In this document: positions 12,708 to 15,158 of the stretch, one piece after another | Layout of the letters: every line of letters begins with the position of its first letter | How positions within the stretch are numbered: position 1 is the stretch's first letter | DNA from: Candidatus Hermodarchaeota archaeon | GTDB lineage: Archaea; Asgardarchaeota; Heimdallarchaeia; Hodarchaeales; Hodarchaeaceae | NCBI GenBank assembly: GCA_048886185.1 | Contig: JBHLKY010000033.1 | Span: 1,621 to 33,620, forward strand | Length of the DNA stretch: 32,000 nucleotides | Reading direction: 5' to 3' | Program-made: the position numbers and the translations under genes | The notes under the pieces: model-generated | Database searches by the model: none | What the model saw: only the letters and a program-made list of their open reading frames with translations | Told to the model about the DNA's origin: nothing

Positions 12708-15158
12708 GTGATCCACGATCCCGTTATATATGAGATCAACAATATAAAGGAGTTATCTTTTGAGAAGACATCTAGAATTCTTCTCCTAGGTTCAAAACTT
12801 AAAATAATGCAATATTTCAGATCAAAATTTAAGAATCTTCGTCCACGTTTGATTTTCTTAGATTTATCATTGTATTATCAGGATTTCAAGAGGATAGAGA
12901 GAATTTTTAAAACCTTACAAGATACAGAGTGTCCTCAGATCAGCGAAATAAATGGGAATTTTTGGAAAAAAGTAGAAAGAATATTTGAAGACTGCAAATT
13001 AACCTTATGTGATGATGGATATATCGCTGTTAAAGTGAATGGAACAATCAAATCAGATGTAAAATCTAAATTAGATATCATTTTTGGTCATGACCAATTT
13101 GTTAATGAAATCATCATCGATTCTCCTTTTAAGCTCTGGTATGCTCCCAACTCTACAGTGTTTGAGAGAACCAATTACATTATGCTTTATTCACAAAATC
13201 TTAACCAACGAATTAAACCTGTGTTAAATGAAAAAGTGAGTGGAGGATATTGGCACTCTTTCGTCTCTAAAGGACAGGGTAAGGCCAAAAGGTTTAAATT
13301 TCGGGATGGTAAAGAAATTATCTTGACTCCTCCCCTTGGGACTCATTGGAAATTAAAACAAAAAACAATCCTAGAGCTATGTGAAAAAGGGGAAATTCGT
13401 TTAAATAAGAAGGGGAATCCAGAATATTGGGTTCCTTTAAAAAAGGGACAAATTATTGACTCCAATTGGTTAGATATACAAAGCTATGAATGGAATCATG
13501 ACCAAAACGTTATCAATTCTTCGGATCTATATAATCGTTTATTTAGTATGTGTTTAGATGGGGGGGATCTCTATCTTGATTTATCTACGAATTTTGGAAC
13601 CTCTTTGGTTGTTGCAAGTCGATTACAGTTAAAATGGATTGGATTAGAAGAAAATAAGTATAAATTTAAATTAATAATGAAAAACTTAATAGAAAAAGGG
13701 ATCCATTTTTGTGTATATGACTGTGAATCTCTTCCTGATTCTCTGAATAATATAAAATACTCTTATCATGAAAAGGACTTAAGTACTTCTGTTGATGACT
13801 CACATAGTCTTGAAAAACTATCGCTACAGCTGATTGAGAGGTATAATATTCAAAATTTGAATTTCAATTTGGAATTAATAGGTAATTGGTCAAATAAACT
13901 GATTTTAGGCGATAGTTATGATGTTTTACGACTTCTAAAACCTAATTTTCAGAAGAAGGTTAAAGTTATTTACATTGATCCTCCATTTTTCACGGGAACT
14001 AATGAAAATATAGTAATTCCAATAGGTCTATCACAACCACTTGGGGTTAACAAATCAGATATACATCTTTCAGTTGAGGATTTAGCATATAACAATGTCC
14101 TAGATGTTTCAAATCCTATCAAATTCTTTATGCAATGGTTCAAGAAACGAATTGAATTGATGAAATCCCTTTTATGTGATGATGGCTTTATTTTTGTTCG
14201 TTTTGATTATCATTTTGGTCATTATGCAAGAATGATCTTAGATGAAGTATTTGGTCGCCAAAATTTTATCATTGAATTTTTAGTTCGAAGAATGAAAAAA
14301 AATCTATCAGAAAGACAAGCTTTTAAACAAACACATCTAATCGTCCATTCAGACTCGTTATTAGTATATCAAAATAGCGAAGAAGCAGATTTAAATCCTT
14401 CAATCGTCAAAAAAATAAGGCGTAAGAACCAAGACTTTGCTGAGAGTCAATATTCTAATGATAATATTTGGTTAGATATTGCTGGTTATGAAAAGCATAA
14501 AAAAACTCTTTACCCAACGGAGAATTCAGAAATTCTTCTTTCCCGAATAATACAGATCTCCTCAAAAAAAGGGGATCTAATTGCTGATTTTTTCTGTGGT
14601 TCTGGAACTACCGCTGCAGTAGCAGAGAAATTAGGACGAAAATGGATTGCTGGTGACATTAGCCGTTATTCTATTCATGAAACAAAAAAAAGAATTTTGA
14701 AAATGCCTAAAAGTGCTTCTTTTGATCATTTTGAATTATCTGGATCTCAAACCTCTACATCTGTTAATCAAGGACTCCAATCGGAATTTAGTATTGATGA
14801 TGAATCATTACCAACTGATGTACCTGTTCCAAAAGTAGAATTGAAAATAAACATTAACAGAAATCAAATAACAATTAATATCGTCCAATTTATCCCCAGT
14901 AATTCATTAAATAGTTCCATAAGACATAACTACATTGATTTTATCGATTTCTGGGCTGTAGATTGGGATTGTCAAGACAAAATATTTATGCCACAATGGT
15001 ATTCATATCGGGAAATGAGAGGAAAAAAGGTGGTTAAGAATATTCAAGCATCAGCAACTCATGAGTACTCCAATCCTGGAAAGTATTTACTAGGTATTTC
15101 GCTTGTTGACGTTTTTGGGAATAGAACTAAACAATCCATGACCATTGACATACAGTGA
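12708..15158 (+). CDS. Beta-class (Type III Mod-like) adenine DNA methyltransferase with two tandem MTase domains, the N-terminal one degenerate
   Basis: C-terminal half has LILGDS, YIDPPF (D at 13977), DFFCGSGTT and the Mod-type tail [9 protein letters not shown]. N-terminal half has FLDLSLYY (D at 12861) and [10 protein letters not shown] at the equivalent positions. Confidence 0.85.
   Translation: [816 protein letters not shown]

Follow-up and report, generated by a model that had tools for sequence, protein, structure and literature searches.

The stretch of DNA analyzed here, referred to as the window, comprises 32,000 nucleotides of the assembly GCA_048886185.1 (contig JBHLKY010000033.1, positions 1,621 to 33,620 of the forward strand) of a Candidatus Hermodarchaeota archaeon, assigned by GTDB to the Hodarchaeales. 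In it, between an MFS transporter gene (11371-12684) and a YjbQ gene (15351-15779), lies an intact open reading frame (ORF) that encodes two consecutive beta-class DNA methyltransferase (MTase) domains, the first degenerate and the second with intact catalytic motifs. Its product is probably a single-chain pseudo-heterodimer of the Type III Mod-type DNA amino-methyltransferases, in which the N-terminal half would recognize DNA and the C-terminal half would methylate it.

The GTG start of this ORF aligns with the initiator methionine of its orthologues, and its product matches the family PF01555 (N6_N4_Mtase) twice. The C-terminal copy (residues 418-660) scores 123.6 bits and the N-terminal copy (residues 83-324), when scanned alone, 36.8 bits, the gathering cut-off being 26.7 bits. 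The N-terminal half (N-half, residues 1-345) and the C-terminal half (C-half, residues 346-816) also align with each other by BLASTP (E = 3e-9, 25% identity, 248 columns). The motif order of the beta permutation is kept in the C-half, where DPPF at 424 precedes FxGSGT at 628, and the remnants in the N-half, at 52 and 289, follow the same order. A first-pass annotation of this DNA had described an N-terminal copy that lost DPPY and FxGxG while retaining a long insert like the target recognition domain (TRD) of Mod proteins, and a C-terminal copy with intact motifs and only a short insert. This anatomy was borne out: DLSL stands at the motif IV position of the N-half, its motif I region, which reads ...[10 protein letters not shown], contains no FxGxG, and the C-half lacks the TRD insert when aligned with canonical relatives.

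By its motifs, the protein can be placed among the beta-class N6/N4 amino-methyltransferases through its C-half, the N-half being a putatively dead homologue. In Type III Mods, the TRD is expected between motifs VIII and X of the active subunit; here the insert was found in the degenerate N-half only. No match to the MT-A70 domain (PF05063) was found in the protein. Its C-terminal tail aligns with the tails of several canonical and split-gene relatives (P0073, P0143, and P0060-66; IDYWAIDW ... VDIFGN), and a Pfam scan of this region gave nothing beyond a sub-threshold match to DUF4625, while some relatives show faint PKD matches. The coordinates of these features are collected in Table 1.

Table 1. 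Features of the fused methyltransferase gene, with positions in the window.
Feature	Residues	Position in window	Strand	Basis or remark
Whole gene, fused dead-plus-active beta-class DNA MTase, orphan, Type III Mod-derived	816 aa	12708..15158	+	Intact ORF; PF01555 twice
N-half, putatively dead MTase domain, candidate ModA-like reader	23-332	12774..13703	+	PF01555; Type III Mod profile matches; own model
Motif IV remnant of N-half, DLSL	52-55	12861..12872	+	Variable D[LIF]S-x in orthologues
TRD-position insert of N-half	170-257 (about 88 residues)	13215..13478	+	Best-conserved region; homologous to a stretch of 6k0w
Degenerate motif I region of N-half	289-297	13572..13598	+	No full FxGxG-T in orthologues
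Inter-domain linker	333-392	13704..13883	+	Conservation 0.28; pLDDT <50 at 344-368 and 383-392
C-half, MTase domain with intact motifs and without TRD insert, candidate ModB-like writer	393-672	13884..14723	+	PF01555 123.6 bits; Z 27.2 to 6k0w_B
Catalytic motif IV of C-half, DPPF	424-427	13977..13988	+	Orthologue conservation
S-adenosylmethionine (SAM)-binding motif I of C-half, FFCGSGT	628-634	14589..14609	+	Orthologue conservation
C-terminal beta-sandwich tail	709-816	14832..15155	+	All-beta in model; common to canonical and split relatives

The same architecture was sought in other genomes, and a search of 5.8 billion proteins returned about 55 full-length orthologues (745-867 aa, 37-60% identity), all from Asgard metagenome-assembled genomes (MAGs) labelled Heimdall-, Hod-, Thor-, Prometh-, Hermod- or Odinarchaeota. 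Motif states and conservation, expressed as the mean frequency of the top residue, were counted in 54 of these orthologues. Motif IV of the C-half is DPPF in 52 of them and DPPH in the remaining 2, and motif I (DF[FY]xGSGT) is present in 53. At the corresponding positions of the N-half, a (D/N/S)PP(Y/F/W) tetrapeptide occurs in 0 of 54, and the motif I region displays 45 different sequences, none with the full FxGxG-T. The insert is the most conserved part of the whole protein (0.79), compared with 0.43-0.50 for the remainder of the N-half and 0.66-0.76 for the C-half core; a short basic segment of the C-half (residues 531-585) reaches 0.71. In an alignment of 21 sequences, 39 columns of the N-half are invariant, and they are concentrated in the insert (SGGYWH, PPxGTHWK, RLN, PEYW, and NWLD). 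The N-half thus appears enzymatically dead yet strongly selected in precisely the insert.

A scan of the genome collection with the N-half led to MAGs of Hodarchaeota and Heimdallarchaeota, among them Candidatus Hodarchaeum mangrovi, B3_Heim, and the closed chromosome CP070695. Of the 20 sampled genomes that share the GTDB family and genus of the window, within the Hodarchaeales, 17 give a strong match to the N-half profile, whereas matches are weak or rare in the rest of the 301 genomes sampled from the phylum. Since the insert is conserved across this lineage, a single fixed specificity is suggested, a property regarded as a hallmark of the ‘persistent’ orphan methylases of archaea (PMC10609329).

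Type III Mods are the nearest relatives of both halves in sequence and in structure. Against the PDB, the first matches of the N-half profile are the Type III Mods 6k0w (2.4e-12), 7dsu (2.5e-10), and the EcoP15I Mod 4zcf (1.8e-8), and a second stretch of the profile aligns PPxGTHWK...RLN of the insert to PPVGMFWRFSQ...GRI of the H. pylori Mod 6k0w. The C-half profile matches 6k0w at 1.4e-27 and 4zcf at 1.6e-22. In an AlphaFold2 model of the whole protein (predicted local distance difference test, pLDDT, 77; predicted template modelling score 0.79), the C-half aligns with 6k0w_B at Z 27.2 (root-mean-square deviation, rmsd, 2.8 over 262 residues), with 7dsu_B at Z 26.2, and with 4zcf_B at Z 25.9. 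The N-half modelled alone (pLDDT 84.7) resembles CcrM (6pbd_B; Z 22.2, rmsd 3.2, 216 residues) and EcoP15I ModA (Z 21.4), 301 of its 332 residues being aligned to residues 74-506 of the latter chain. This range spans the EcoP15I TRD, which has been delimited to residues 263-384 (PMC4490356). The MT-A70 cores, with Z of about 13 to both halves, show a distant fold likeness.

Alignment with single-domain relatives distinguished three architectures, namely canonical Mods, split pairs, and the fused form. In the canonical Mods (P0073 from Thermoplasma, P0078, P0143, and P0152; about 620-656 aa), an active MTase bearing the same insert is joined to a middle domain and to the same beta-sandwich tail. 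Because a ResIII gene of 844 aa follows P0073, the locus of this Mod represents an ordinary Type III system. In the split pairs, the counterparts of the two halves are encoded separately. Loci L016 and L017 carry four genes in a row: P0125 (583 aa), with DLPF, a degenerate motif I, and the insert; a ResIII protein of 858 aa with a C-terminal endonuclease domain; P0060 (600 aa), with DPPF and FGGSGT, without the insert, and overlapping the end of Res by 4 nt; and a HARE-HTH/Mrr_cat gene. As a whole, the stretch L016:1659-8871 is a Type III-like locus in which two different Mods surround Res and a gene for a HARE-HTH plus Mrr_cat nuclease comes last; its Res bears TnsA-like/RE_endonuc matches at residues 721-831. 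Locus L019 holds the dead P0132 followed by a Res gene truncated by the contig end, and L042, from the same sample, begins within the C-terminus of a Res that overlaps the active P0062 and is 40% identical to the L016 Res (E = 3e-58). The active, insert-less P0065 or P0066 of L015 and L041 directly follows an N-half-like gene (342 aa or 289 aa; 38% identity to the N-half of the window, E = 8e-59).

All four insert-less active genes whose context was examined (4/4) sit with a reader-type gene or with Res, and Res is present at the relatives' loci L016, L018, L019, and L042. The occurrence of both parts as split adjacent genes, some of them flanking a Type III Res, together with their fusion, argues that the candidate reader and writer function as a pair. 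In agreement with the first-pass annotation, no res gene adjoins the fused gene, its MFS transporter and YjbQ neighbours including no helicase or nuclease, and the fused orthologues at L004 and L022, which belong to other clades, have different neighbours, also without Res. A search of the organism's own 96%-complete genome returned no homologue of the L016-type Res, with the L016 Res as the single query, a result that does not prove absence.

Phylogenetic analysis placed these architectures in an evolutionary order. In a maximum-likelihood tree of 44 MTase domains (280 columns), all fused N-halves and split readers form one clade (support 100/100), and all fused C-halves and split writers form another, active and insert-less (100/98). 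The two clades are sisters (98/96), nested inside the canonical Mods, and their branching is mirrored: the same groupings recur in both for P0056/P0057, P0051 with the L016 pair, the L015-type pair, and ten Hodarchaeales sequences. Branch lengths in the dead clade exceed those in the active clade by a factor of 2-4. Sister clades with mirrored branching indicate one ancient duplication followed by complementary loss and co-evolution as a pair, and since the dead and active lineages were separate before the fusion, the gene is a fusion of two old, specialized Mod paralogues. The unconstrained tree requires three changes; a single origin of the fused form is not rejected by approximately unbiased tests (p 0.086 for N-halves, 0.113 for C-halves).

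A recent internal tandem duplication was considered and rejected, because the halves are only 25% identical and the tree splits their lineages before the fusion; the separate-gene lineages are closer to each half (35-38% to the N-half, 45-48% to the C-half) than the halves are to one another. The internal duplication reported in the first-pass annotation therefore stands as regards two homologous MTase copies, but not as a recent event, the copies being old paralogues that remain separate genes in relatives.

The packing of the two halves was addressed by complex prediction, with the two half-alignments supplied as separate chains. The score was 0.83, against 0.00 for the best of 3 controls, thereby passing a mark reached by 58 of 80 solved complexes and by 2 of 110 mismatched pairs; runs agreed in at least 90% of contacts, with a partner pLDDT of at least 83. 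The predicted interface joins residues 112-178 (plus 248-256) of the N-half to residues 501-589 of the C-half. These segments are homologous, with a constant offset of 389 (G104/G493 and E134/E523 in the alignment), which makes the predicted interface pseudo-twofold. It overlaps the strand-loop region that holds the dimer contacts of CcrM, by an approximate mapping in which CcrM 102 equals residue 502; in CcrM, these contacts are made by Ile110, Asp113, Phe130, and His134 (PMC6787082). The prediction supports, without demonstrating, binding of the halves via homologous surfaces.

The chromosomal setting of the fused gene is also conserved. The order DUF6884, a 336-358-aa ORF, (MFS), MTase, YjbQ, an ORF of about 150 aa, TFIIB, HflX, S8 protease, and PFK is common to the window and three other loci: L001 (CP070695), L002 (from a MAG labelled Thorarchaeota), and L021, the MTase of which shares only 42% identity with that of the window. 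Such synteny speaks for vertical inheritance at a fixed place in the chromosome, in contrast to mobile restriction-modification genes. The housekeeping flanks are conserved just as well as the DUF6884 and TGT-like genes, so the synteny does not in itself favour a functional link with the latter.

Upstream of the MFS gene, the region 7725-11358 of the window contains four ORFs (7725-8705 on the reverse strand; 8858-9751, 9778-10272, and 10282-11358 on the forward strand), which comprise two ORFs of 326 and 358 aa with TGT similarity, a DUF362 protein, and a DUF6884/YaaA-like protein. The TGT similarity amounts to 12-18 bits, below the Pfam cut-off of 26.3, and a PADLOC scan of the two TGT-like ORFs gave no match. 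In L001, L002, and L021, too, the MTase is immediately preceded by the DUF6884 gene and the 358-aa ORF. A DNA-binding fold of the base-flipping kind has been predicted for DUF6884 (PMC11701544); in PADLOC, the protein of the window matches the candidate system PDC-M57A (2.4e-10) and, weakly, DpdC (0.006).

Taken together, these data are most readily accommodated by the following scheme. An ancestral Mod gene would have duplicated; one copy would have lost its catalytic and SAM motifs and kept the TRD insert, becoming a ModA-like reader, while the other would have kept catalysis and lost the insert, becoming a ModB-like writer. Some Asgard archaea would still use both as separate subunits, together with a Res helicase-nuclease. 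The Hodarchaeales lineage represented by the window has the halves fused, and there Res would have been lost and the reader stripped of its C-terminal domains. The MTase cores are predicted to pack back to back, as in beta-class homodimers; the insert of the N-half would bind and read the DNA site, and the C-half would flip the target base into its DPPF pocket and methylate one strand, most likely at adenine N6. The conserved insert and vertical inheritance would imply one fixed recognition sequence and a resident, non-defence role, either epigenetic or in self-marking. The first-pass annotation had proposed that an asymmetry of this kind is hard-wired in one polypeptide, citing the EcoP15I Mod2 dimer, in which one protomer reads DNA and the other methylates it; the division of labour was cited in accordance with the publication (PMC4490356). 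Insert conservation, the predicted packing, the split-gene pairs, and the phylogeny lend support to that proposal.

It is important to note that several observations weigh against this scheme. The pattern PPxGxxW...G-I-RLN is also conserved in canonical Mods of presumably other specificities and may represent a structural part of the TRD that does not read bases. The C-half segment 531-585 and the beta-sandwich tail could contribute to DNA binding or dominate it. The short split readers L015:4916-5944 and L041:5084-5953 keep an FCGSG motif I and have DLPPY at motif IV, that is, DPPY with one residue inserted, so the reader lineage is not uniformly dead. The result of the complex prediction may mirror likeness to solved beta-class dimers. 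Finally, the close and conserved clustering with DUF6884 and TGT-like genes would be compatible with a role beyond simple orphan methylation.

The first two of these points lead to an alternative in which the N-half is a structural or allosteric partner that stabilizes the C-half, as DNMT3L, the C-terminal domain of PRMT7, and the N-domain of RsmC do, recognition residing mainly in the C-half, its basic segment, and the tail. There is ample precedent for dead domains whose main role is activation or scaffolding (PMC10908127, PMC1934991), the portion of the insert that is conserved, being common to canonical Mods of other lineages, need not encode specificity, and the C-half segment is both conserved and basic. 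However, the most conserved part of the N-half is the insert and not the dimer-interface core, and the loss of the insert from the active lineage with its retention in the dead one is what would be expected if each dimer needed one TRD and no more. The EcoP15I structure, moreover, indicates that a beta-class protomer is geometrically unable to read and methylate the same site (PMC4490356). A purely supporting N-half is accordingly considered unlikely, although it fares best among the alternatives.

Somewhat less probable still is that the enzyme belongs to a larger DNA-modification or defence module formed with the co-oriented upstream DUF362, DUF6884/YaaA-like, TGT-like, and MFS genes, for example in concert with a base-exchange step or with an unrecognized nuclease elsewhere in the genome. 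The run from DUF6884 through YjbQ is conserved with very short gaps down to the 42% MTase identity of L021, and the predicted fold and PADLOC matches of DUF6884 would suit such a module. Yet the order of TFIIB, HflX, S8 protease, and PFK is equally kept, so vertical descent alone might account for the synteny; neither the fused orthologues outside this clade (L004 and L022) nor any of the split loci have DUF6884 or TGT-like neighbours, and the TGT similarity, at 17.6 bits, is far below the Pfam cut-off.

A housekeeping enzyme acting on RNA (rRNA or tRNA) or on single-stranded nucleic acid would explain why the gene is near-universal, single-copy, and vertically inherited, with a fixed insert, within one lineage, and why it sits among housekeeping genes; some beta-class enzymes, such as M.EcoGII, do act on RNA (PMC6787082). 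This substrate is improbable, as the closest relatives are DNA-acting Type III Mods with adjacent Res, and no RNA-binding domain was detected among the Pfam matches of the protein. The idea that the N-half is what remains of a tandem duplication, in decay and without function, to which its lost and variable motifs and its long branches might lend color, can be set aside, for its reading frame has stayed intact in 54 orthologues with identities as low as 37%, its invariant columns and insert are retained, its fold is confidently predicted, and the same dead lineage persists as a separate gene beside an active partner.

Further methylase genes were noted in the window and in the genome. At 5118-6473 (forward strand), a 451-aa methyltransferase combines a motif-I-like N-terminus (UPF0020, residues 33-78) with a match to the first half of PF01555 (residues 245-400), and matches PADLOC Type II MTase models over its full length (7e-44); a similar gene is found in the vicinity of the fused MTase both in L001 (1891-3231) and in L004 (5910-7370), the latter labelled Odin. 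On the reverse strand, 19756-21915 and 21954-23744 encode adjacent gamma-class Eco57I/N6_Mtase paralogues of 719 and 596 aa with no recognizable nuclease domain. This pair also occurs in L001 (18041-22020) and may represent another paralogous methylase pair. The organism's own genome contains 37 PF01555 matches, and in several single frames the C-terminal part of the profile precedes the N-terminal part or several partial matches occur (for example, C29:37508-39112, C1:152073-153038, C20:28615-29652, and C11:146131-147654), which suggests further permuted or tandem methylase architectures. Downstream of YjbQ, the window holds a 151-aa ORF without a family match (15917-16372, forward) and a 131-aa HTH_3 protein (16669-17064, reverse). 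Small ORFs occupy the equivalent position in L001, L002, and L021, where TFIIB lies between them; no TFIIB was found among window ORFs of at least 100 aa.

In the literature, coverage of which was partial, no description was found of a beta-class DNA MTase with reader and writer hard-wired in different domains, of a Type III system with a dead-reader/TRD-less-writer Mod pair, or of this Asgard family of fused MTases; the only precedents were analogues (PRMT7, RsmC, and METTL3-14) and phase-variable multi-mod loci. A broader proposal can be put forward only tentatively: an Asgard variant of Type III systems with an obligate dead-reader/TRD-less-writer Mod heterodimer may have been domesticated in Hodarchaeales as a fused, Res-less, vertically inherited epigenetic writer of one fixed sequence, possibly together with the DUF6884 and TGT-like genes. 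If true, nature would have left a three-step series from homodimer through heterodimer to single chain, which would prove the division-of-labour model of EcoP15I and would find a parallel in METTL3-METTL14 and MTA1-MTA9, which arose independently in eukaryotes. Hodarchaeales are among the closest archaeal relatives of eukaryotes.

The read/write idea for dimers of beta-class DNA methyltransferases rests mainly on one crystal structure, that of EcoP15I. The Asgard proteins would provide a natural separation-of-function experiment, in which one paralogue retained the reading insert without catalysis, the other retained catalysis without the insert, and both were kept together as neighbours, with or without Res, or in one chain. 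Such a separation would make the dimer model directly testable with simple constructs. The fused protein also offers a compact single-chain writer whose putative specificity module is physically apart from its catalytic module, and it would show a route from defence enzyme to lineage-wide resident methylase in Hodarchaeales, as a prokaryotic, independently evolved parallel to the eukaryotic active/dead methyltransferase pairs.

Among known systems, the closest resemblance is to EcoP15I Mod2 and the other Type III Mod homodimers (4ZCF, 6K0W, and 7DSU), with which both halves share the beta-class fold and motif order and the insert shares the TRD position; relatives of the fused gene also adjoin Res genes. 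Unlike these homodimers, the Asgard protein combines two different, specialized domains in one chain instead of two identical subunits, its candidate reader being without catalytic and SAM motifs and its candidate writer without a TRD insert. In addition, the fused reader lacks the C-terminal domains that contact Res in EcoP15I, and, unlike in Type III systems, no Res was found in the window or, with the L016 query, in the genome.

As an orphan, vertically inherited beta-class MTase, the protein recalls CcrM, M.MboIIA, M1.HpyAVI, and M.BceJIV. CcrM-type dimers form via their MTase cores, and their protomers contribute unevenly to DNA binding (PMC6787082). The interface predicted here lies on the same core segment, and the structural matches to this group have Z of 22-24. 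CcrM-type enzymes, however, are homodimers of fully active subunits, and CcrM relies on a non-specific DNA-binding domain at its C-terminus where the Asgard protein has a dead paralogous domain.

In design, the protein further resembles METTL3-METTL14, MTA1-MTA9 (AMT1 complex), DNMT3A-DNMT3L, PRMT7, and RsmC, where an inactive paralogue or domain gives substrate binding or a scaffold to an active one, in PRMT7 and RsmC within one chain (PMC10908127, PMC1934991). The likeness is one of design only, since the MT-A70, PRMT, RsmC, and C5-MTase families are not PF01555, act on other substrates, and none derives from Type III restriction. Two MTase domains in one chain also occur in the fused Type IIS MTases. 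In these enzymes, M.FokI among them, both domains are active and each methylates one strand of an asymmetric site, whereas in the Asgard protein one of the two domains appears to be dead.

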